Source: an uncultured Eubacteriales bacterium (GTDB taxonomy: Bacteria; Bacillota; Clostridia; Lachnospirales; JAISER01). From it: a stretch of 64,000 bases of DNA. The position numbers were made by a program, and so were the translations under genes. Below are positions 6,477 to 64,000 of the stretch, piece by piece. A model generated the notes under the pieces. It did not search any database. It worked only from the letters and a program-made list of their open reading frames with translations, and had not been told where the DNA came from. Numbering within the stretch: the stretch's first letter is position 1; each line of letters opens with the position of its first letter. The stretch lies in assembly GCA_964545475.1 (NCBI GenBank), contig CAZJGG010000008.1:666-64665 (forward strand), given 5' to 3'.

Positions 6477-6501
6477 ACGTTTTTTTGATATAATTTTTAT
6501 A

Positions 6502-6604
6502 TAGAGCAATTTGACAAAACATTGACAGGTGTGGAGCGGAAACAGCAAACGTTTCACCGCTGTTTTCGCGAACATAGCTGTTTATGTTTTTGCAAATAGC
6601 TATA
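6502..6604 (+). mobile_element. 103-bp hairpin MITE-like element, copy 1 (most diverged, 96/103 versus copy 2)
   Basis: It has the same termini and architecture as the copies at 7226, 60375 and 62837, and is flanked by TA on both ends. Confidence 0.8.
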
Positions 6605-6942: not shown

Positions 6943-7808
6943 GTGCGCAGTGAAAAAACAAAATTATTATTTGCAGTATTTTTGCTCTTAACATTATTAT
7001 TTTTATTTGATGTAGATTTATCCAATAAGGATTACGGCTCATGTCTGCCCACAAATGTTATAGTTCATTGGCAGGAATTTGAAAATTCTTCATTCCCAGT
7101 TGTTGCCTCGTGTGAAAACGAGGATACATATTTATATGGGTGAAAAGAATTTGATAAAGTTATTGTAAGGCATAAAGATGTTTTTCAAGCCTTTGATTGG
7201 TATTACACAACGCCAAGAAGATTTTTAGAGCAATTTGACAAAACATTAACAGGTGTGGAGCAGGAACAGCAAACGTTTCACCGCTGTTCCTGAGAACATA
7301 GCTGTTTATGTTTTTGCAAATAGCTATACCCCAAATGAAAGTGTGTGATATTGATGGAGACGGTGCAGACGAAATTGCTGTAAGCATGAATATGGGTTCA
7401 GGAACAGGCATAAGCATTTATGAGCTTCATATACTTGAAATTTTAAATGATAGGTTTATTGACAATAAATTTTTGTTAGAACCAGGAAGCGATTTATCTG
7501 CTTTAGGCATTGACTTTAAAATTACAAAGGAAAACGATAAAACATTTTTAACCCTCTATAATAATTCGGAGTTAGAAGCTGTGCAGGATATTACAGAATA
7601 TGGGTTAACTGAAAATGATGTTAAATTTTCATATGGTTACATTGTGGAATTTAATATTTTGGAAAACGGAGAAATTGAAATGAATGTGGCCGTTGGTCTT
7701 GATACTGTAAGTGAAGCTACGATTATTTATCTTTTTGATGTAAAAGCTTCAATTAAATATGAAAAAGACGGTGGGTTTTCATTTAAAGTTAAGTCAATAA
7801 CAGAGTAA
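6943..7808 (+). pseudogene. Inactivated paralog of the 7881-8630 gene (in-frame TGA at 7141 plus a 101-bp element insertion)
   Basis: The ORF fragments 6943-7143 and 7308-7808 are together colinear with the 249-aa protein encoded at 7881-8630 (EDTYLYG, MKV.D.DGDG..EIA, YELHILEI, KDGGFSFKV). They are interrupted by a stop codon and by the repeat at 7226-7328. Confidence 0.8.
7226..7328 (+). mobile_element. 103-bp hairpin MITE-like element, copy 2 (inserted in a coding sequence at a TA)
   Basis: It differs from copy 3 at 1 of 103 positions. Removing the element plus one TA restores the host reading frame. Confidence 0.85.
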
Positions 7809-35237: not shown

Positions 35238-38200
35238 TTATTCTGCTTTAAAAGCTTCTGAAAAACCATTTTTTGAAGTAGCTTTAGTTCTTACAAAAAT
35301 TGTTTGCCCTTCTTTTATAACAACTTTGTTAATAATGCCTTTTGTCGGAACAGATTTCCATTTTGTAAGTTTTGTATTTGTTAAATCATTTACATTTGCA
35401 TTGGCATCAGCCACTGCGTATTGAAGGGTTTTAGTGAGTACACCTTCACCTGGGATTATTGTTACTTCCGCACCTTTTTCGCCCGGAACAATAGTTACAG
35501 AAACATTAGGTGCGTTGCCGGAAACTAAAGTTTTTACTCCTTTTCTAGGAACGGATGCCGGATAAATTAAGCTTTGTGCGGCTCTAATAAATATTAAATC
35601 CTGATATTGAGCAGACACTGTAACAGTTGGTTTTGTGCCTTCAGTTGGGCAGCCTTTCCAGCTGTTTTCAAAAATAGATGCCTCGTTTTGTGCAAGCTGG
35701 TATTGATAGTTGCTGTATGGTTTAGAAAAAACTAGGCTGGTAGTACCGACAACTCCTGATGAAGTTGATTTAACGCTTGCAGATGGTGCTTTTGGTGCTG
35801 AAATATATTTATTGGATAGAGTTACTGTATCAAAAATTCCGGCTTCGCTTTTTGAATTGGAAAGCAATATTTTGTAGCCTGCTTTTACGGAATTGCTTGG
35901 CACAGATGTTTTTGTAACTTGTCTCCAAGTTATTTTTTTAACACCATCCCAAATAGCGTAATAATATTTAGTTGTTTTTATATCTGTTAAATTAAAGGTT
36001 ATATCAGTTGCCGCTGCTTTTTTAAGGCTTTTGGATACATGAATATAAGTAAATACGTCATCTTCACCATTATTGTTGTCATCGTCATCATCATCGTCAT
36101 CGCCGTCACCATCTCCACCTTCTGTGTCAGAGATTTTTGAGAAGTTTGCTGTAACTGTAACTTTTTTACGAACAGATGTATCCGGTAATGTAAATGAAGT
36201 TTGTTGCGCTGATGCATTTGTAAGAGTGCCGGCTGTAGCTGTCCAGCCATCAAATTTATATCCATTATTAGGGGAAGAAGAAATATTTACTGTATGACCA
36301 GAACCATAAACCCCTTCATGAGGTGTTACAGAGCCGCCACCAGAAGCAACAACAGACAATTCATTATATGGCAAAGCCTTTTTCAAGTTTTCAACAAAAA
36401 ATCTGTTAGCGCCATTTACAATAAAGTTATAGCGGTCTGGGTAACCTGTTAAAGAGTGTACTCCTCCTTTGGCTTCTTTATAGAACAAGTCCGTTGTTCC
36501 GTTTTGAACTCCTGCTTCTTCAAGCCTTGAAACGAACCGTCTTGCATATCCTACGTTTATTGTAGGGTCTGCATCTCCATGAAGTACATATGTAGGAGTC
36601 CCCGGTTTTAATTCATAAAGTTCGTCGAACTCATTTTCAGGAGTTCCCCAAAGTACTGCGGAAGCAATATGCCCGTTGTAGTTAAAGCCACGGTTTGCCT
36701 TAGCATAAGCATAACCTGCAACTGTGCGCCCTCCGGCAGAGCCGCCCGCAGTAAATATATAATTCGGATCAAAGTTATATTTATTTGCGTTTTCTCTAAG
36801 CCAGTTAATAGCTGTGTTTAAGTCTTCGCTAGCATCACGCATTGCAGGCACTTCGTCTGCAGTTGTTGGCATGTCTGAACCTTTTCTAAGGCGATAATCG
36901 ATAGAAGCGGTTACATAACCAAGCTTTGCAAAACGTGTAGCCATTTCAACAATATACCCTTGTTTTCTGGTGGAATCATCTCTAAAGCCGCCACCGTGTA
37001 CGAAAACTATAACAGGTCTGTTGTTTCCGGTCATGCCGTCACCACGATATATATCCATAGATAAATCTATTTCTTTTTGTTTATAATCTCTTAAAGTTGC
37101 AAACTTTTCTTCGGTTACATTAACGGTTGAAAACTGCTCATTAAGATAAACCTCCGGGTTAATCGGCGCATATGAACGTGTGTCAACAGGGATTTCCGCA
37201 GGGGTGTTTGGATCACCGCCGCCCCCTTCAGAGCGTTCAAGCTGTAAAACAAAAGTTCTTTTAGAAACACCATTTGCCGCAGTAACATCCATTTCAAACT
37301 CATTAAGCCCCATTTCTAAGCTTACACGAAATTGGTCTTTAATTAATGTTTTAGCACCATCTTTTACTCTATAAATATTAGCAACTGCACCTACAGGTAT
37401 TTGTGGAATTATACAAACGCTTTCTACTACTTCATTAACTGCGCCTGCATAAACGTTAGGTGGGTTATATTCTTGGAATACTTGCACTGCCCCTCCGATA
37501 ACACCTGTTGCAGTTTGAAAACCTTCTAAAACTTTAAAAGTTGCATCTGTTTTATCGTCCGTAGGAGAACCTGCGCCGGTTGTAACATAAAGCTTCGGAC
37601 GAAGATTAGAGCTCTTTGTATTTATTGAATGAAATTTTAAACCGTTTGAGTTATTTGTTGTAGTAAAAGGTATAAGCCTAAGAGAGAAAGTACCGCCTTT
37701 ACCTACCTTGCTATTATAAAAATCCGTTATATCAACAACACACTGAGAGTTTGAGGATTCTGCATAGAATTGGGTTATATAACCCATATCTCTATTTCCG
37801 GAGGTTAAATCACCGAAAAGCGCTGTTGAAGTTGAACCGTTTTCAAGTATGTTTGGCTGTGTGCCCCATGTCATTCCTGCTTGCCAATCCGAAACTTCAA
37901 AAACACCAACATCATGTTTTACAGAACCGCCGGAATTGCCGCTTATATTTATCTGAAGTTCGACTTTTTCAGCTTTTGCTGTGGGTGCATTAAAAGTAAG
38001 GTAAGGTGCTCTCGGGCCGCTTGTAGACGGAAGCTTTATAAGCATATCTTCTGCGTTATCAAAAATATTTACAGAACCACCCTCAACATAAGTAGTTTTT
38101 GTGGGGTAATCAATTTTAACGCCTTCTGGCAAACGATCAATTGTTAAAGTGTACTCTAATTGAGCATCCCAGTCTTCTGCTGTTGTTTTTATTAAAACAG

Positions 38201-41200
38201 TATTTTTTCCAGCGTTGAGGTTTGCGGTTACCGTAAAATTTTCGTCTTGTTCTACAACTTGACCGTTTACTTTAACTACTTGTGGTGAAGCAGGAGTTTT
38301 TTCTGTTTGCTGTTCGGATTTAATTGTAACAACACTTGTTTCATATGGAACAAGTGCGCTATAATCTTTAACGCTGTCAGTAAGGTTTGGGCTTATTGCA
38401 ATGTTTTCTAAACCATCCATAACCTTAAGTGTTTTAAGCTTAGCATTATTATCAAGCCCAGATGCGCCATTTGTAATTACTAAACTAGGTTTAGTTTGTT
38501 CAGATGCACCTGTTGAAGTTGAGTTTATAGAATAAACAAGGTTGTTTGGTGTTGTGCTTGATTGGGACATAACAGTAACAATTAAAGTTAATGTTAAAGG
38601 ACCGCTTACACCTTGTGCTTTATCTTTTAATATATCTGTTATATTAGCGTCAAGCTTTACGCCACGTGAATTTGCAAATGGAATATCAACAGCACCATCT
38701 TTGTTTCTGAAAGTATCTGCATACCATGGATGACTTGTATTAAATGCATCGTAGTAAGTTTTAGCTTCAGCGCTACCATTAGCACCCGGGCTTAGTTCGT
38801 TTGAAACCGGTTGGGATGCCCATGTCATAGGGGTAGCTAAAGTTACAGGCTGCTCCGTAACAAATAGTCCTAGTTGAGAGGTATGAGTGCCAGCAGTGCC
38901 ACTGCTTGTATCTAACACTATAGAAAACAAGCCTTTGTTAAAGTCGTTTTCTTTAATTTTAGCTACATCGTCAGCAGAAAGCTCTAAAGTATAGTATATA
39001 AGCCTACATGCTGTGGCACCTGCGTTTTTTAATGCTAGGTTTGCCGTACCATTTACAATGCCGCCGCCGCCGTCGTTACTATGTAAGAAAACGTCTTGTG
39101 TTGGAATAATGGTGCGCGTATCAAGTACAGAATCTACAACTGTAAAGCTTCTTCTGTAATCAACTCCGTTGTATGAGTAAGTAACATGTTGCACGCCTTT
39201 GCTTTTTGTGCTGATAGCATTAGGTGTTATTGTTAAACCGGTTAAATCTGCGCCGCCGTTTATAGTAACGCCTTGTTTAAGGAAGTCTTCACCTAATTCA
39301 TAGTTTGGAGCAGAGCCGGAAAGCCTTTGAGCTGTTCCATTTTCAAAACCAACAGGTGTTACGCCGCCTTGGAATTGAATAGGTCCAATATCCGGCGTTG
39401 ATTGGTTTATTGAATTTCCTGAAATATCTGTAGACGGCATACCTGAAATTTGTTTGCCTGCGCCTATAGCCGGAGAATCACTTCGTAATTTGTAACCATC
39501 AAACATTGCTTTGAAAGTATCAAAGTTGAAGTTTGTTTTATTCCCTCCGTTAAGAGTACGTTTGCCTGGGGCTTTGCCCGGGAAAATTAATTTAGGGTCT
39601 AAATATATATTGTTTTGGCCGATTCCGGCTTGAATACCAGAGTCCGGTTTTGCACCAATACCGTAAAAAATGTTATTGTCTATATCACGGTTAATAACAA
39701 CCTCTGTAGAGCCGTTGTTACGCTTTCCGTCTGGGGATATTAAGTGGTAAACATAGTTACTATCGCTGTAAACGATATTGTTGTAGAACTTATAATCAAG
39801 AACCCCCGAGTAGTTTCCGCCGCTTCTTTTATAAGTTTCGTAAATAACAGGTATATCTTCTGTATAACCAGTGGATGTACCCTTGGGGTGGGTAGGAATA
39901 ACTTTTTCTCCAATATAAAAGAGGTTATTATAAATTTGTGTATTAATGAAATTATAGTTTAAGTTCAAAATACGCCCACGGTCGTTTTGGCTTACATTGT
40001 AGCGCACAACAATATCTTTGTCTGATGCAACTGTACAGAATGTTATAAGCCCGAAGTTATTATCATGGGTGTAATTATATTCCCAAACTGTACCGGGACT
40101 GTAAAAGTCTGCATCGAAGCCGCTTCCGTCCAAATCATGGTGCTCTCTGTTGTCATAAGCTTCGTTGTAACGGAAAGTTGTTCCGTAAACGGTACGGCTC
40201 ATAATTGAGTTTCCGCTTCCTGCACGGTCGGAAATGTTATGAACTATATTTTTTTCAACAACACATGTTTCATCCGTTAAACGGATTATCATTGCATTTT
40301 TTCCTGTATCTGTTACAAGATTATCTCTAATTGCAACGTTTGACCATTTCATATCGTTCCAGGAAAGTTTTTCGCTAGAACCGAGAACGTCTTTCTTTTC
40401 AGCAGCTTCAGCGGGATCTCCTGTAGGTCTAAAATTTGTAGAAAACCCGTTACTGCCCATTGTATCTGAGGTTGTGCCGTAAAATTGGTTAACTGTATTT
40501 CCGCCAGATCCCCAGTTAAAATAACCGTCAAAAAATATACCGGTGCTGTTAACTCTCTCAACAACACAACCCTCTATTACAACATCTTCAAAGCGAGGTT
40601 TTTCCGGCTTTGAGGAAACGGCTGTAACTGCAAAACCTATGCCGCCTGTCATTTTGCTAACGTTTGTTCCCTCAACAAGCCCTGTAACATCGTGTACATA
40701 AAGGTCTTTAAGGGTTACGCCTTTAAGAGTTCCGTCATCTCGGTTTTCAACAAACACCCCTGCTAAAAAGTTTCCGGTACCAATGCCAGAACCTGTAACA
40801 GTTAACCCTGGCGTTATGTTTGTAACCTCAATATCACTTACTGTAACATAAGCTGCATTATACAAATAAATGGATGCGTTTGGAACAGGGTTGCCGGATG
40901 TTGCTCTCATGTCATTATCTGTACCGCTTATGTTTGAAGGGTTTTGCCCTGTTCCGTTAATAATCGGCTTATTTCCGCTTCCGTAAGCCCCAACGGTTAT
41001 TTCGTTGCCGTTAGTTCCTTTTCCTTGGATTTTTAAAGTTCCCTCAAAAATAGAACCTCTTTCCAAAAAAACTTTATCTCCCGGAGCTAAAACTAAATTG
41101 TCTAGCTTTGAAAGGTTTCTCCATGGCGAGCCTTCGCTGCCGTTGTTGCTGTCATTGCCGTTAGTTGAGGAAAAATAATAGCTTGTTCCTCCTGTTGATT

Positions 41201-41480
41201 GTGTAAGCTCTAACGGTGTTGCTAATGGTGCAGCAATTTGTTGTAAATTCTCATCTAGGTTTTCTTCTGTATTATTGTTTGTATCCTTTTCTTTGTCGTC
41301 AGAGGGCGGAATTTCACTTTCGCCTTCGACATCTGTATCCTCTATTGGTAAGTTGTCACCATTATCAATTGGGGTTGAAACATCTTCAATTGAAGTGTCA
41401 TCAGCAAATGCATAAAATGAAGCATTTGTAAAGCATAATGCAAATATAAGTAAAAAAGCTATACTTCGTTTAAACATCAT
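35238..41480 (-). CDS. Giant (~2,080 aa) secreted multidomain polysaccharide-active enzyme combining a right-handed beta-helix and an alpha/beta-hydrolase carbohydrate esterase
   Basis: AAGGGTG RBS precedes ATG 41480 (MMFKRSIAFLLIFALCFTNASFYAFA signal peptide). Next come an acidic linker and a beta-helix-type N-terminal region (SPWRNLSKL..LAPGDKVFLERG). It has cadherin-like/Ig-like modules and an esterase core with HGGG (VIVFVHGGGF), GGSAGG and HGDADP motifs. It also has a Listeria-Bacteroides-type repeat (GYKFDGWT), a D8 linker, and three C-terminal ~90-aa beta modules. Confidence 0.8.
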   Translation of the reverse strand: MMFKRSIAFLLIFALCFTNASFYAFADDTSIEDVSTPIDNGDNLPIEDTDVEGESEIPPSDDKEKDTNNNTEENLDENLQQIAAPLATPLELTQSTGGTSYYFSSTNGNDSNNGSEGSPWRNLSKLDNLVLAPGDKVFLERGSIFEGTLKIQGKGTNGNEITVGAYGSGNKPIINGTGQNPSNISGTDNDMRATSGNPVPNASIYLYNAAYVTVSDIEVTNITPGLTVTGSGIGTGNFLAGVFVENRDDGTLKGVTLKDLYVHDVTGLVEGTNVSKMTGGIGFAVTAVSSKPEKPRFEDVVIEGCVVERVNSTGIFFDGYFNWGSGGNTVNQFYGTTSDTMGSNGFSTNFRPTGDPAEAAEKKDVLGSSEKLSWNDMKWSNVAIRDNLVTDTGKNAMIIRLTDETCVVEKNIVHNISDRAGSGNSIMSRTVYGTTFRYNEAYDNREHHDLDGSGFDADFYSPGTVWEYNYTHDNNFGLITFCTVASDKDIVVRYNVSQNDRGRILNLNYNFINTQIYNNLFYIGEKVIPTHPKGTSTGYTEDIPVIYETYKRSGGNYSGVLDYKFYNNIVYSDSNYVYHLISPDGKRNNGSTEVVINRDIDNNIFYGIGAKPDSGIQAGIGQNNIYLDPKLIFPGKAPGKRTLNGGNKTNFNFDTFKAMFDGYKLRSDSPAIGAGKQISGMPSTDISGNSINQSTPDIGPIQFQGGVTPVGFENGTAQRLSGSAPNYELGEDFLKQGVTINGGADLTGLTITPNAISTKSKGVQHVTYSYNGVDYRRSFTVVDSVLDTRTIIPTQDVFLHSNDGGGGIVNGTANLALKNAGATACRLIYYTLELSADDVAKIKENDFNKGLFSIVLDTSSGTAGTHTSQLGLFVTEQPVTLATPMTWASQPVSNELSPGANGSAEAKTYYDAFNTSHPWYADTFRNKDGAVDIPFANSRGVKLDANITDILKDKAQGVSGPLTLTLIVTVMSQSSTTPNNLVYSINSTSTGASEQTKPSLVITNGASGLDNNAKLKTLKVMDGLENIAISPNLTDSVKDYSALVPYETSVVTIKSEQQTEKTPASPQVVKVNGQVVEQDENFTVTANLNAGKNTVLIKTTAEDWDAQLEYTLTIDRLPEGVKIDYPTKTTYVEGGSVNIFDNAEDMLIKLPSTSGPRAPYLTFNAPTAKAEKVELQINISGNSGGSVKHDVGVFEVSDWQAGMTWGTQPNILENGSTSTALFGDLTSGNRDMGYITQFYAESSNSQCVVDITDFYNSKVGKGGTFSLRLIPFTTTNNSNGLKFHSINTKSSNLRPKLYVTTGAGSPTDDKTDATFKVLEGFQTATGVIGGAVQVFQEYNPPNVYAGAVNEVVESVCIIPQIPVGAVANIYRVKDGAKTLIKDQFRVSLEMGLNEFEMDVTAANGVSKRTFVLQLERSEGGGGDPNTPAEIPVDTRSYAPINPEVYLNEQFSTVNVTEEKFATLRDYKQKEIDLSMDIYRGDGMTGNNRPVIVFVHGGGFRDDSTRKQGYIVEMATRFAKLGYVTASIDYRLRKGSDMPTTADEVPAMRDASEDLNTAINWLRENANKYNFDPNYIFTAGGSAGGRTVAGYAYAKANRGFNYNGHIASAVLWGTPENEFDELYELKPGTPTYVLHGDADPTINVGYARRFVSRLEEAGVQNGTTDLFYKEAKGGVHSLTGYPDRYNFIVNGANRFFVENLKKALPYNELSVVASGGGSVTPHEGVYGSGHTVNISSSPNNGYKFDGWTATAGTLTNASAQQTSFTLPDTSVRKKVTVTANFSKISDTEGGDGDGDDDDDDDDNNNGEDDVFTYIHVSKSLKKAAATDITFNLTDIKTTKYYYAIWDGVKKITWRQVTKTSVPSNSVKAGYKILLSNSKSEAGIFDTVTLSNKYISAPKAPSASVKSTSSGVVGTTSLVFSKPYSNYQYQLAQNEASIFENSWKGCPTEGTKPTVTVSAQYQDLIFIRAAQSLIYPASVPRKGVKTLVSGNAPNVSVTIVPGEKGAEVTIIPGEGVLTKTLQYAVADANANVNDLTNTKLTKWKSVPTKGIINKVVIKEGQTIFVRTKATSKNGFSEAFKAE

Positions 41481-41493
41481 AAAAACACCCTTT

Positions 41494-42225
41494 CTAATTA
41501 AGATCAATTGTGAGCCAAAATAAAAGCCTTGGCTTAACTCTATAGCCATTAGCAGTTTCAGAAACAATCCGTTCAAAAGCTCTGTTGCAATATAGGTTTA
41601 AAACTGTGTCTTTAACTTCCTCAAAAGGTTTTAACTCTTTTGATTCCTCTTCGCCTTCTATTGAAGGGTATACATAATTTTGTTTTGTCTCTTTATAAAG
41701 GGCTAGCAAATCATCTTCTGTAAATTCAACTTCATTTTCTATAACCTTATATTTAACAGCAATTTCTAAATTGGATATATAATAGTCATAGAAGCGGTTA
41801 AATTCTTGAGTAAAGACTTCTCCATTGGTTTCATCTTTTATAATTCCCCCAGTTGCGCCAAAATCCTCGGCAATGCTTTCAAACGAAACATCGTCTGTAA
41901 GCCCGTATTTTACGGCTAAAGACTGGATTACCTTTATACGAGCCAGCTCATTGGCTGCCGAATTTTTTGCGTATTCAAGGGGCGTTGTTCCGTCTACCTT
42001 TGTTTTCCAGAAATCTTTACCAAACTCCAAATTGTACTGCCTGTTAAAGTAAGATGCGGTTTCTGCTCGTTTTTTTTGTATAAAAAACAGCAGTTCGTCT
42101 TTTCTTACATTGAAACTATCAATTTTAACAACAACAGGATTTTTAGAAAACACCGGTAATATAGCAGTAATAAATACAACTGAAAAAATCAGTAAAAGGC
42201 AGAGAAACATTTTTTTATTACGCAA
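41494..42225 (-). CDS. Membrane-anchored hypothetical protein, SurA/PrsA N-terminal-like with no PPIase domain recognised
   Basis: The likely start is TTG 42225, 9 nt after GGAGGG, giving MRNKKMFLCLLLIF.. as a signal anchor. The gene ends 13 nt upstream of the giant enzyme gene. Confidence 0.55.
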   Translation of the reverse strand: MRNKKMFLCLLLIFSVVFITAILPVFSKNPVVVKIDSFNVRKDELLFFIQKKRAETASYFNRQYNLEFGKDFWKTKVDGTTPLEYAKNSAANELARIKVIQSLAVKYGLTDDVSFESIAEDFGATGGIIKDETNGEVFTQEFNRFYDYYISNLEIAVKYKVIENEVEFTEDDLLALYKETKQNYVYPSIEGEEESKELKPFEEVKDTVLNLYCNRAFERIVSETANGYRVKPRLLFWLTIDLN

Positions 42226-53148: not shown

Positions 53149-53997
53149 ATGGAATTACCTTTTAATATAGATTTGAAAAATAAAGTTGCTGTTGTTACCG
53201 GTGCTGGGGGAGTGCTTTGCTCTATGTTTGCTAATGCTGCTTCTCTGTGCGGTGCAAAAATCGCCCTACTGGATTTAAACCAGGAAGCGGCACAAAGCGT
53301 TGCGGATGAAATTAATGCAAAGGGAGGAACTGCTAAAGCCTATAAAGCTAATGTTCTTGACAGAGAAGACCTTGAAAATGTTCATAAACAAGTTCTTGCA
53401 GACTTAGGCAAATGCGATATTTTAATTAACGGCGCAGGAGGGAACTCTCCGAAAGCCACAACAACTAAAGAATATTATTTTGAAGGAGATATAGACAGCG
53501 ACACAGTAAGCTTTTTCGACCTTGATAAGTCGGGAGTTGAGTTTGTGTTTAACCTTAACTTTATAGGAACGCTATTGCCTACACAGATTTTTGCGGCCGA
53601 TATGTTGGGGCGTGAAGGATGTTCTATTATAAATATAAGCTCTATGAATGCGTTTACGCCGCTAACAAAAATTCCGGCATACAGCGGCGCAAAAGCGGCT
53701 ATTTCTAACTTTACCCAATGGCTTGCAGTTCATTTTTCTAAGCAGAAAATTAGAGTTAACGCCATTGCCCCCGGATTTTTTGTTACTGCCCAAAATGAAA
53801 AGCTTTTGTTTAACCAGGACGGAACTCCTACGGAAAGAACAGGGAAAATCCTTGCGGCAACGCCTATGGGGCGCTTTGGAGAAGGAAAAGAGCTTGTTGG
53901 TACATTGTTATACTTGCTTTCAGATAATGCATCAGGTTTTGTAACAGGTGTTGTTATTCCAGTAGACGGTGGGTTCTCGGCATATAGTGGGGTGTGA
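53149..53997 (+). CDS. uxuB: SDR-type D-mannonate oxidoreductase (fructuronate reductase, YjmF/UxuB-like)
   Basis: It has TGAGGVLC, NGAGGN and YSGAKAA motifs and lies between uxuA and uxaC. Confidence 0.7.
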   Translation: MELPFNIDLKNKVAVVTGAGGVLCSMFANAASLCGAKIALLDLNQEAAQSVADEINAKGGTAKAYKANVLDREDLENVHKQVLADLGKCDILINGAGGNSPKATTTKEYYFEGDIDSDTVSFFDLDKSGVEFVFNLNFIGTLLPTQIFAADMLGREGCSIINISSMNAFTPLTKIPAYSGAKAAISNFTQWLAVHFSKQKIRVNAIAPGFFVTAQNEKLLFNQDGTPTERTGKILAATPMGRFGEGKELVGTLLYLLSDNASGFVTGVVIPVDGGFSAYSGV

Positions 53998-53998
53998 T

Positions 53999-55234
53999 AT
54001 GAAAAAATTCTTAGATAAAGACTTTTTGCTTAAAACAGACACAGCGAAAAAACTGTATAATTACGCTGAAAACTTGCCGATTATTGACTATCACTGCCAT
54101 GTGAACCCTAAGGAAATAGCGGAAGACAAGAAATTTAGTAACATTACAGAGGCTTGGTTGTATGGCGACCATTACAAATGGAGAGCCATGAGGGCATGCG
54201 GGGTGCCGGAAAGCCACGTAACAGGAACAGCTTCTGATTTTGATAAGTTTTATTCATATGCTAAAATTATGCCCCAATTGCTGGGAAATCCTCTTTACCA
54301 TTGGTCACATTTGGAATTGCAAAGATATTTTGGCGTTGATGAAATTTTATCTGAAAAGACTGCTAAAACTATATACGATAAATGCAATGACGTGATTTCA
54401 GAGCTTTCTGTGCAAGAAATTATTAAGCGTTCAAATGTTGAGGTAATATGTACAACAGACGACCCCGACGATACTTTGGAATGGCACAAGGCAATTAAAG
54501 AAAACGGCTTTAAAACAAAAGTTTTACCAACGTTTAGACCTGATAGACTTTTAAAAAATGAACTAGGACTGTCTGAAACTGAACTTTTGAAGCATTTGGA
54601 GAAGCGGTTAGACTATTTTGCTGAAAACGGTTGCAAATTAGCAGACCATGGCATTTCTAGCTTAAACGACACAAAGCTTATAATTGAAGTTGCAAAGCTT
54701 TACAAAGAGCGTAATATCGCTATGCAGCTGCATTTTAATGTTGTAAGAAATGCAAACAGCAAAATGTTTACAAAAATTGGAGCAGATACAGGGTTTGACG
54801 CAATATGCGACAGCGCAAGTGCTCAACCAATAATACATATATTAGACAGCCTTAACTCATGCGGCAAGCTTCCAAAGACTGTGCTTTACTCCCTTAATCC
54901 ATCGGACAACACATCAATCTCAGCATTGAGTGGTTGCTTTGATAATGTAATTCAAGGTAGTGCTTGGTGGTTTAACGATTCTATTAAAGGCATGGTAGAG
55001 CAAATAACAACTATGGCAAGCGTTTACCCTATAGGGCGTTTTCTTGGAATGCTTACAGACAGCAGAAGTTTTCTTTCTTATACAAGGCATGAATATTTTA
55101 GGCGTTTGTTTTGCAATATTGTTGGGGAGCTTGTGGAAAACGGCGAATACCCCAATGATTGGGATTGCCTAACAGCATTGGTAAAAGGTGTATTTTACGC
55201 AAACTCAAAAGATTTTTTTGAATTCGGAGGTTAA
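53999..55234 (+). CDS. uxaC: Glucuronate isomerase
   Basis: FLLKTDTAKKLYNYAENLPIIDYHCH..P and GDHYKWRAMRACGV match UxaC. Its start lies 1 nt after the upstream stop. Confidence 0.88.
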   Translation: MKKFLDKDFLLKTDTAKKLYNYAENLPIIDYHCHVNPKEIAEDKKFSNITEAWLYGDHYKWRAMRACGVPESHVTGTASDFDKFYSYAKIMPQLLGNPLYHWSHLELQRYFGVDEILSEKTAKTIYDKCNDVISELSVQEIIKRSNVEVICTTDDPDDTLEWHKAIKENGFKTKVLPTFRPDRLLKNELGLSETELLKHLEKRLDYFAENGCKLADHGISSLNDTKLIIEVAKLYKERNIAMQLHFNVVRNANSKMFTKIGADTGFDAICDSASAQPIIHILDSLNSCGKLPKTVLYSLNPSDNTSISALSGCFDNVIQGSAWWFNDSIKGMVEQITTMASVYPIGRFLGMLTDSRSFLSYTRHEYFRRLFCNIVGELVENGEYPNDWDCLTALVKGVFYANSKDFFEFGG

Positions 55235-55235
55235 G

Positions 55236-55859
55236 ATGAGTGAAATAATGAAAAAACTAGGTGAAACAGGTATAATTCCAGTTATAAAAATAGATGATGC
55301 AAATACGGCACTTCCTTTAACTGAAGCGATGATAAATGGTGGCATTTGCTGCGCAGAGGTAACATTTCGCACAGATGCCGCCGAAGAAAGCATTGCTCTA
55401 ATTGCCAAAAATTTACCAAATGTTTTGTTGGGGGCGGGAACGGTGCTTTCAGCCGAACAGGTAGACAAAGCGGTTAGCGCAGGGGCAAGCTTTATTGTTT
55501 CTCCCGGAATTAACCGTAAAGTCGTTGAATATTGTTTATCAAAAAATATACCAATCATTCCAGGGTGTATCACTCCAACAGAAATAGAAATTGCTTTAGA
55601 GTATGGGCTTGAAACAGTTAAGTTTTTTCCGGCTGAACAGGCAGGGGGATTAGGCATGATAAAAGCCTTGTCTGCGCCGTATAACAAACTTAATTTTATA
55701 CCAACAGGCGGTATTAACTTAAATAATTTAGCCCAATATTTGAGTTTTAACAAAATAATAGCTTGCGGCGGTTCGTTTATGGTTAATAACGATCTTGATA
55801 AAGTGACGGAGTTATCCAAACAAGCAGTGAAAATTGTTAAGGAGGCTAAAAGCTTATGA
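55236..55859 (+). CDS. eda: 2-dehydro-3-deoxyphosphogluconate (KDPG) aldolase
   Basis: GGAGGT precedes ATG 55236. It has GIIPVIK, CAEVTFRT, GAGTVL, VSPG and KFFPAE motifs. Confidence 0.88.
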   Translation: MSEIMKKLGETGIIPVIKIDDANTALPLTEAMINGGICCAEVTFRTDAAEESIALIAKNLPNVLLGAGTVLSAEQVDKAVSAGASFIVSPGINRKVVEYCLSKNIPIIPGCITPTEIEIALEYGLETVKFFPAEQAGGLGMIKALSAPYNKLNFIPTGGINLNNLAQYLSFNKIIACGGSFMVNNDLDKVTELSKQAVKIVKEAKSL

Positions 55860-60374: not shown

Positions 60375-60477
60375 TAGAGCAATTTGACAAAACATTAACA
60401 GGTGTGGAGCAGGAACAGCAAACGATTCACCGCTGTTCCTGAGAACATAGCTGTTTATGTTTTTGCAAATAGCTATA
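60375..60477 (+). mobile_element. 103-bp hairpin MITE-like element, copy 3
   Basis: It is 102/103 identical to copy 2. The only difference is at loop position 51. Confidence 0.85.
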
Positions 60478-60615
60478 TGCAAAGTTTCAAATACACTCAA
60501 ATAGGGTTAATTTAAAAGGTATCTGCATTTCTGGTGGTTTTGAAAATTTGCCGGAAACACAAAAATTACTACAAGCAGGTTTTTAAGCCCTATACACTAA
60601 AGGAAAGATTTTATT

Positions 60616-62836: not shown

Positions 62837-62939
62837 TAGAGCAATTTGACAAAACATTGACAGGTGTGGAGCAGGAACAGCAAACGTTTCACCGCTGTCC
62901 CTACGAACATAGCTGTTTATGTTTTTGCAAATAGCTATA
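62837..62939 (+). mobile_element. 103-bp hairpin MITE-like element, copy 4 (99/103 versus copy 2, stem partly decayed)
   Basis: It has the same termini. Three substitutions in the 3' arm of the apical stem are not compensated. Confidence 0.8.
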
Positions 62940-63085
62940 TAGAACTTTTTAGCCATTTTTATATTATATCACTGTTTTTTTGTTAACTACAATCTTTGTA
63001 ACACCCATTTTACAGTGAGAAAAGTTCTAATCCTCCTTAATTTGCATATAAATAAATGAATGGATACATTTAAGGAGGAAGCAAA

Positions 63086-63175
63086 ATGGAGAACTTTGAT
63101 TTATACAAAGACATAGCTGAAAGAACCAGCGGAGATATTTACATAGGTGCTTCTGTTATAATAGGACTAAATTAG
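63086..63175 (+). pseudogene. spoIVA: 5' fragment (21 native codons) of stage IV sporulation protein A, interrupted inside the Walker A region
   Basis: An AAGGAGG RBS precedes it. MENFDLYKDIAERTSGDIYIG matches the SpoIVA N-terminus (B. subtilis MEKVDIFKDIAERTGGDIYLG-VVGAVRTGKS). After Gly21 (63146-63148) the frame reads ASVIIGLN-stop instead of VVGPVRTGKS. Confidence 0.8.
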
Positions 63176-63211
63176 CGAAGTGAGAGCTTCAAAAATTTAG
63201 TCCTATTTTTT
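63161..63211 (+). terminator. 12-bp-stem hairpin plus T-run just inside the foreign DNA
   Basis: An ATAGGACTAAAT (63161-63172) / ATTTAGTCCTAT (63195-63206) stem is followed by TTTTTT. It encloses the premature stop codon. Confidence 0.6.
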
Positions 63212-63349
63212 TACTGTATAATTAGTGAATATTGCATGAACAATATGTACATTTATATTGTCAAGTGGAAAGAAATGTTATATTATTAGTACATAAAGTT
63301 CACAAAGATTGATAATACACTAAATATAGAAATGTGAGATGATTCAATA

Positions 63350-64000
63350 ATGAAAAAATCAACACCTGGCCCTGATTTAAGCAAAGACTTTAAGTTGTTT
63401 GCTGATGAATGGTTAAAAGAAATACTTAATTCTGAAAGTTTTCAGGAATACGCAATAAAACAACTCAAAAAGCATTATGAAGGAGATATGGTTTTTAAGG
63501 GCGCACAGTGGCTTGCCAAAGCCGAAGGTAATATACCTTACATATACAGTACAAAAGATCCCGAGCACAAAAAGTGGAATGGTGGTTTTGACAAAAGTCA
63601 AGACTTAACATTTGGAATGGGGCACAGTATCAAGACTGAAGAAGAATTTAACGATATAAAGAATTTTGTCGAAACACATAGTGATTCAGAAATATCTGCA
63701 AAAATACAGCAGTACATACAGGAAGAAATAGCCAATGCTGTCGAACATGTAAATAATTTTCTTAAAAGAAATAATGTTTTTATAAATCAAAATGAATTTG
63801 ATGCTGTGGTTTGTCTCGTTTTTAACTATCCGAAAGCGTTAACAGATAGCTCTGACCTTGGAAGGGCACTAAAATCAAGTACTTACAGTACAGAAGATAT
63901 AATAATTGGCTTTACGTATACTTTACAATACAATGATAAAAAGAAAATAAAAGAGCGAGTACCCGGCTTAGTAACAAGGCGCAACAACGAACTAAACTTG
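63350..64000 (+). CDS. Phage-type lysozyme (GH24-like), 3' end outside the window
   Basis: The frame is open for 217 codons to the window edge. AEGNIPYIY...TFGMGH resembles the T4-lysozyme catalytic region (E..x..D..T.G.GH). QNEFDAVVCLVFNYP and PGLVTRRNNE match the conserved GH24 C-terminal motifs. Confidence 0.7.
   Translation, partial: MKKSTPGPDLSKDFKLFADEWLKEILNSESFQEYAIKQLKKHYEGDMVFKGAQWLAKAEGNIPYIYSTKDPEHKKWNGGFDKSQDLTFGMGHSIKTEEEFNDIKNFVETHSDSEISAKIQQYIQEEIANAVEHVNNFLKRNNVFINQNEFDAVVCLVFNYPKALTDSSDLGRALKSSTYSTEDIIIGFTYTLQYNDKKKIKERVPGLVTRRNNELNL

Follow-up and report, generated by a model that had tools for sequence, protein, structure and literature searches.

Within the stretch of DNA analysed here (64,000 nt; the window), the frame of the sporulation gene spoIVA loses all resemblance to SpoIVA after its 21st codon. 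What interrupts the gene, and could the interruption be reversed? SpoIVA is a universally conserved coat-morphogenetic ATPase that comes early under sigma-E. Sporulation-gene elements that are excised in the terminally differentiating mother cell are the classic case of mobile DNA as a developmental switch. For spoIVA itself, mother-cell, sigma-E-dependent expression was established in B. subtilis (PMC517825). The first-pass annotation of the locus had suggested an intervening element that begins with a phage lysis gene. We examined the junction in the window, searched for the same junction and for its far end in relatives, and reconstructed the recombination sites.

Results

spoIVA breaks just before the Walker A loop

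The spoIVA frame in the window started at ATG 63086, behind the RBS AAGGAGG (63072-63078), as had been annotated. The ORF (63086-63175, plus strand, 29 codons) read MENFDLYKDIAERTSGDIYIG from 63086 to 63148, followed by ASVIIGLN and TAG (63173-63175). The 29-aa peptide matched positions 1-22 of the Pfam family PF09547 (SpoIVA_ATPase; E 6.9e-6, 26.0 bits, slightly below the cut-off of 26.6), and its residues 1-21 were identical, at 21/21 positions, to the N-terminus of P0251, a complete 492-aa SpoIVA. These matches bear out the claim that the frame is a conserved SpoIVA N-terminus. Intact spoIVA genes continue from codon 22 with VVGPVRTGKS, the Walker A loop, and the window breaks just before it. 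tblastn detected no SpoIVA similarity 3' of the break in any frame and no further SpoIVA-like sequence within the 64-kb window; the abrupt end of similarity after 63148, followed by eight unrelated codons and TAG, was thus confirmed.

Upstream of the frame, a promoter-like block with the 5' leader and RBS (63018-63085, plus strand) was 95% identical to positions 2113-2180 of L015, one of the contigs described below, and aligned with the region 5' of intact spoIVA in other Defluviitaleaceae. Candidate sigma-E-like motifs were spotted by eye in this block. The genes near the junction were those of an ordinary chromosome (uxuA, SDR, uxaC, pfkB, MCP and GNAT genes). In L072 and L073, too, spoIVA has uxaC and pfkB as near neighbours, a hint that this is the native locus.

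Several other features of the window were recorded. A partly palindromic intergenic repeat of about 104 nt occurs in four copies, 91-99% identical (6498-6604, 7226-7328, 60375-60478 and 62837-62940); one copy sits about 80 nt 5' of the spoIVA promoter block, and Logan contigs from the same organism end inside this repeat. uxaC is divided between two ORFs that overlap (53969-55234 and 55188-55859), which points to a frameshift or insertion, and a 2112-aa ORF occupies 35238-41576 on the minus strand.

Downstream of the break, eight element-derived codons and the stop (63149-63175, plus strand) closed the truncated frame. They were overlapped by a hairpin with a 14-bp outer and a 5-bp inner stem, then a T-run (63160-63214, plus strand). 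The outer stem paired 63160-63173 with 63194-63207, and the RNA fold had an energy of -23.3 kcal/mol (z = -3.6 against shuffled sequences). A hairpin and T-run had been annotated here with a stem of 12 bp; both were found, the outer stem being 14 bp long. The structure looks like an intrinsic terminator. We considered whether it was a genome-wide repeat and rejected this, as it occurred once in the window, at the junction. Rfam gave no match in the window between 56 and 64 kb.

The same junction occurs in four independent contigs

The spoIVA break of the window recurred at the identical codon in L015, L016 and L027, three further independent Defluviitaleaceae contigs. L015, an NCBI Defluviitaleaceae MAG, was the sole match in a scan of species-representative genomes. 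L016 and L027, from JGI termite-gut metagenome data, turned up when metagenome contigs were searched for exact matches to the 19 bases preceding the break; many intact spoIVA genes matched as well. A conserved element end was common to all four. Immediately 3' of the break each contig carried G-NNN-CTGT-N-ATAATAGGACTAA, then the hairpin, then the T-run; past about 60 nt from the break the sequences were unrelated. The frame-closing tails were equivalent (ASVIIGLN in the window, ASVIIGLSK* in L016 and VPVIIGLSH* in L027). The hairpin stem was retained in L016 and L027 by compensatory change (AGT/ACT for AAT/ATT), with different loops. Foreign DNA therefore follows spoIVA codon 21 at an exact, site-specific junction in four contigs, in agreement with the proposal of an intervening element at this position.

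L015 was unusual in two respects. Its spoIVA fragment started with ATT instead of ATG, and its RBS was weakened, with part of it lost. Upstream of the perfect junction, positions 1-2271 held a degenerate hairpin without CTGT, a frameshifted lysozyme gene and a 300-aa gene. This layout, for which simple integration by a large serine recombinase (LSR) does not account, reads as a decayed arrangement, with a dead junction in at least one lineage. It also raised the idea that the element brings a spoIVA promoter and the first 21 codons of its own and so rebuilds the gene at the far junction. We rejected this as a general design, because the far junctions described next (L071 and L072) have unrelated N-terminal tails and the boundary at 63018 marks a promoter block that is kept in intact genes.

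Arrays of serine recombinase genes adjoin the 3' part of spoIVA in relatives

To find the far junction (attR), we searched proteins with the SpoIVA of L041, an intact relative; the closest sequences were annotated Defluviitaleaceae. The search returned SpoIVA proteins with a replaced N-terminus. P0167, in the attR set of L071 and L072, started with MQVTFSLCLTDAG|VVGPVRTGKS. P0177 started with MTDAG|VVGPV, and the pair P0177/P0178 read (M/L)TDAG|VVGPV. SpoIVA proteins of 455 aa were also considered as attR products and rejected; in L073 the gene proved to be intact, its start having been miscalled.

In L071, three LSR genes (555, 562 and 533 aa) and an ORF for a resolvase-domain protein of 166 aa preceded spoIVA, which was present from codon 22 to its end and in the same orientation; ordinary host genes followed. 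L072 contained the end of one LSR gene and a complete 531-aa LSR gene, followed by the 3' part of spoIVA in the same orientation. The LSRs of both contigs had the Pfam domains Resolvase, Recombinase and Zn_ribbon_recom, and the nearest solved structure to the LSR N-terminal domain was TnpX (E 2e-25). A serine recombinase near the far junction had been anticipated; it lies directly upstream of codon 22 in these two contigs, that is, in related elements only. No recombination directionality factor (RDF) was recognised among the genes near the LSR array, where small ORFs (DUF6870, HTH_11 and the 166-aa resolvase-domain protein) are RDF candidates.

The split 3' parts of spoIVA in L071 and L072 were uninterrupted ORFs of 471 codons. 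Against intact genes their dN was 0.12-0.16, and the intact pair L041/L073 gave 0.14, with far greater divergence between other intact pairs; dS was saturated, so these values are dN only and not a true dN/dS. Between L071 and L072 the terminal LSRs were 78% identical and the preceding LSRs 71%. The similar divergence of the LSRs (78%) and the SpoIVA parts (80%) fits, and does not prove, long co-residence. The attL contigs (window, L015, L016 and L027) and the attR contigs (L071 and L072) were separate, none carrying both junctions.

Reconstruction of attB and attP

An alignment of four attL, two attR and five attB sequences identified a common core, GGTG, at 63146-63149 of the window (no strand assigned). 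The B arm of attL consists of spoIVA codons 1-21 (63086-63148, plus strand), recognised by the PF09547 match and the identity with P0251, and ends just 5' of the Walker A loop. The P' half-site, TG CTT CTGT TATAAT AGGACTAA, occupies 63148-63170 (plus strand), and its outer part is overlapped by the hairpin; CTGTNATAATAGGACTAA was conserved in the window, L015, L016 and L027. On the other side, codon 22 was preceded by TTAGTCCTTACTTGACAGATGCTGG-TG in L072; L071 had a closely similar sequence that matched P' less exactly. When inverted, the P arm, TTAGTCCTTACTTGACAGATGCT, matches P' at 16/23 positions. It lies 55-75 nt 3' of the LSR array, about 55 nt past the last LSR stop in L072; in L071 the 166-aa ORF lies between. 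The attR pattern was TTAGTCCT-N6-ACAG-N5-GGTG, then GTNGTNGGNCC.

Combining the independent attL and attR contigs gave an attP of 48 bp, an imperfect palindrome of the form TTAGTCCT-N6-ACAG-N12-CTGT-N6-AGGACTAA with GG at its centre. attB was the spoIVA coding sequence around codons 16-27, ...GATATTTACATA-GG-TGTAGTTGGACC... When the B arm of attL was joined in silico to the B' arm of attR at GGTG, the product read ...GDIYIG|VVGPVRTGKS..., in the frame of intact genes. attB, attL and attR had only GGTG in common, and the junctions had no long direct repeats. The short repeats expected at both junctions are therefore present as a common core, of 4 bp only. The presumed crossover dinucleotide is GG (63146-63147). 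Judged from sequence pattern, this anatomy is that expected of an LSR site.

Scanning for the complete 48-bp attP pattern gave a single match, in L058 (3896-3943). It lies 6 nt downstream of an LSR array, counted from the last stop codon; the terminal LSR there shares 37% identity with the LSR of the spoIVA type. The site continues into the left end of a sister element and reads as a circular or unintegrated junction. The sister family, which shares the outer att motifs of the spoIVA family, was seen in the viral contigs L050-L054 and L056. There, the P' 18-mer cuts LSR genes right after Y-x-D-E-G, and the elements, inserted into LSR genes of other elements, carry RepA_N, ParB and DUF3801 genes. 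The layout pieced together from attL and attR on different contigs thus occurs as a real attP in this related family.

Occupied and empty sites

The termite-gut metagenome Ga0123355 contained both L027, with an occupied site, and L041, with an intact spoIVA. The two contigs were 100% identical over all 116 nt that L041 has 5' of the junction, which, at the level of contigs, showed that empty and occupied spoIVA sites coexist in one termite-gut metagenome.

P0251 may represent a similar case. Its N-terminus, identical to that of the window, was matched by none of about 30 other Defluviitaleaceae-like N-termini compared. It is known from NCBI data only, on one contig of 44,273 nt, and is absent from the L015 MAG, the sole other indexed relative, and the 90% clusters of seven window proteins revealed no second NCBI assembly of the species. 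For these reasons P0251 probably comes from the same assembly as the window. By analogy with L027 and L041, the simplest reading would be that P0251 is the empty-site allele and that the assembly, probably a MAG, holds both occupied and empty alleles; P0251 could instead be the product of a second spoIVA locus. An intact P0251 implies that at least part of the population, or another locus, has an unsplit spoIVA. The first-pass annotation had reasoned that its proposal would fall if an intact spoIVA existed elsewhere and the 21-codon piece were only an att-site remnant. The former is probably true in the shape of P0251, which does not in itself make the fragment such a remnant.

Could the junction then be a dead relic, that is, an old, decayed insertion with a functional intact spoIVA elsewhere on the same chromosome and nothing left to be reconstituted? 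An intact, NCBI-only SpoIVA with an identical N-terminus, with no second assembly to which it could be assigned, would be expected in that case, and the decay in L015 (the ATT start, the frameshifted lysozyme gene and the degenerate second hairpin) shows the kind of change that it involves. The window, however, has kept its promoter block, RBS, ATG, P' half-site and lysozyme ORF intact. The same data are explained by coexisting occupied and empty alleles, as seen directly for L027 and L041, and LSR integration alone yields no second intact copy. We therefore consider a relic unlikely, and a recombination site in an occupied allele the better reading of the window.

The visible cargo is not phage-like

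The contig of the window, 64,880 nt long, reaches at most 1.7 kb into the element, and only one cargo gene is visible. This gene encodes a GH24-domain muramidase (63350-64000, plus strand; PF00959, Phage_lysozyme), residues 84-214 of which matched PF00959 with an E value of 5.9e-10. The gene had been annotated about 140 bp past the hairpin and as running off the window; it does run off the window, from an ATG at 63350 (not 63351). The full protein, P0001, has 245 aa, with 217/245 codons in the window and a computed end at 64087, beyond it. A sigma-70-like promoter match, TTGTCA-17-TATTAT, was located 5' of the gene (63258-63286, plus strand). This is a consensus match only, and such matches were no commoner in the region than in shuffled sequence.

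The muramidase was 62% identical to the frameshifted copy in L015. It had no tblastn match in 50,697 phage records, no blastn match to phage DNA, at most 35% identity in IMG/VR, and a weak match to the endolysin family phrog_7 (E 5e-9). Among its closer relatives, one was a C-terminal domain behind an RHS core, one had choline-binding repeats, and another was found among small ORFs lacking annotation, in an array that also included a phospholipase-like gene and an RHS-core fragment. Elements at the same junction carried other genes: ParA in L016, and a 1509-aa protein with HTH and DUF6870 genes in L071. The visible parts of the related elements (L016, L071 and the sister family) contained no phage genes. 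Nothing in the phage records searched exceeded 37% identity to the LSR, a search of viral contigs with it gave no close relative, and no IMG/VR contig carried a spoIVA attR.

These results bear on whether the insert is a prophage, with the lysozyme gene as the start of its lysis module, as the first-pass annotation had it. The GH24 domain call was correct. The domain itself, the phrog_7 match and the fact that known elements splitting sporulation genes are mostly prophage-derived (PMC4191935, PMC10747680) are what such a prophage would predict. The rest of the evidence points elsewhere: the protein is without relatives in the phage records, some of its kin are tied to RHS cores, choline-binding repeats or a phospholipase-like gene, the related elements carry ParA, cargo of no known kind or the RepA_N, ParB and DUF3801 genes of the sister family, and viral contigs lack the spoIVA attR. 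The inference of a phage lysis module is thus unsupported, and a prophage appears less probable still than a relic; an integrative element moved by LSRs accounts better for what is visible.

Short SpoIVA ORFs and other breaks in spoIVA

Short SpoIVA N-terminal ORFs are common in public data, occurring on up to 95 contigs, and are frameshifts. We considered them as extra insertion sites. The class of 104-105 aa (P0023, P0025, P0037 and P0100) was rejected, because the next ORF overlaps and continues SpoIVA; that of 112 aa (P0019, P0020, P0054 and P0120) reads as a frameshift of GYLEDD. Contigs L066-L069 have several neighbouring genes split besides spoIVA.

Although such frameshifts are frequent and the window probably comes from a MAG, an assembly chimera or a simple frameshift pseudogene is hardly credible as the origin of the break in the window, given the identical junction in independent assemblies of different projects, a downstream sequence with no SpoIVA similarity in any frame and a junction with recombination-site anatomy. 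These observations, together with attR in relatives, identify the break, as read from sequence, as a site-specific recombination junction (attL), neither a frameshift nor an assembly artefact.

Other interruptions of spoIVA were found apart from this junction. A second recurrent break in termite-gut Defluviitaleaceae lies at codon 417, the Pfam boundary between the middle and C domains (L074 11180-11360; also L075 and L076). There the frame ends in a tail without relation to SpoIVA (FKYKMK...) and a stop, with a terminator hairpin behind them; the break is represented by the proteins P0205, P0212, P0218, P0236, P0242 and P0253. The island behind it exceeds 10 kb and carries AAA_14/DUF4143, AAA_35 and CHAT genes; the C-terminal piece of spoIVA was not within 10 kb. 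The IMG/VR contig L044 (1-2823) has a once-frameshifted spoIVA frame that passes directly into a terminase large subunit near residue 433; this is either a chimera or a prophage inserted at a third site. L037 (319-1863) encodes a SpoIVA of 514 aa in which an unrelated C-terminal tail replaces the conserved ending ...EGSGGLICIIL.

Discussion

Positions 63146-63170 of the window are very probably the attL of an integrative element that belongs to an LSR-moved family and is inserted in spoIVA. The insertion sits inside the coding sequence, after codon 21. We propose that the attB of this family is the spoIVA coding sequence itself, with strand exchange at the GG of the Gly21 codon. Integration would part the promoter and 21 codons from the remainder of the gene, which begins at the Walker A loop. 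The element end would supply eight codons, a stop and a terminator-like hairpin, so that transcripts initiated at the spoIVA promoter would end where the element begins. At the far end, judging by the related elements, two to three LSR genes in a row would be followed by the P arm and then, in the same orientation, by all of spoIVA from codon 22 onwards. Excision by the LSR would restore GGT|GTA exactly, with the frame preserved. Since the window contains only attL and a short stretch of cargo, the recombinase, attR and the 3' part of spoIVA are demonstrable in relatives rather than in its own genome. We infer that the element of the window keeps its recombinase end, and that excision may occur in its organism.

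The proposed element resembles several known systems. Skin in sigK (SpoIVCA in B. subtilis; CD1231, with the RDF CD1234, in C. difficile) is likewise an LSR element inside the coding sequence of a sporulation gene, one that B. subtilis expresses in the mother cell (PMC5025042); its recombinase gene adjoins one junction, and precise excision restores the frame. The target of skin is a sigma factor, whereas that of the spoIVA element is a sigma-E-dependent morphogenetic ATPase. Skin has one LSR, while the relatives of the spoIVA element have arrays of two to three and cargo that, where visible, is not phage-like. SPbeta in spsM (SprA/SprB) also shows LSR integration in a sporulation gene, a short core and reconstitution upon excision (PMC4191935, PMC5499854). 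SPbeta is, however, an active phage, and the LSR of the spoIVA element has no counterpart above the 37% identity seen in phage records.

The later-found elements gin in gerE (B. cereus) and yin in yabG (C. botulinum) follow the same principle (PMC5595907, PMC10747680). gin is a non-prophage element, and integrated and excised forms of yin coexist in one culture, resembling the occupied and empty sites of L027 and L041. Their targets differ from spoIVA, and those cases were shown experimentally, whereas the spoIVA case is drawn from sequence alone. Large serine recombinases of the TnpX type, from clostridial mobile elements (Tn4451), are similar in that the recombinase genes lie at the element end adjoining the att site; the LSRs of the spoIVA element differ in their strict one-codon target in one conserved gene and in their multi-LSR arrays.

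Full-text literature searches returned sigK, spsM, spoVFB, spoVR, gerE, yabG and spoVK as targets of sporulation-gene-splitting elements, and none reported spoIVA. We thus found no earlier report of spoIVA as a target of this known kind of element, consistent with the remark in the first-pass annotation that it is not among the classic examples. spoIVA would add to the known targets sigK, spsM, spoVFB, spoVR, gerE and yabG, and would extend the phenomenon to Defluviitaleaceae (class Clostridia), including termite gut symbionts. The 48-bp attP, the attB in a conserved coding motif and the multi-LSR array would form a recombinase/site pair with a well-defined natural target, directly testable in vitro. 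For annotation, sporulation need not have been lost in such genomes just because spoIVA looks 'missing' or truncated.

A more far-reaching possibility, which we put forward tentatively, is that spoIVA of Defluviitaleaceae is a developmentally rearranged gene. The multi-LSR element, lying between a sigma-E-type promoter with 21 codons and the ATPase body, would be excised in the mother cell soon after sigma-E activation, rebuilding the gene, and the second, independent insertion at codon 417 would make spoIVA a recurrent hot spot. If developmental excision is true, assembly of the coat basement layer, a step earlier and more structural than in any known case, would be under mobile-element control.
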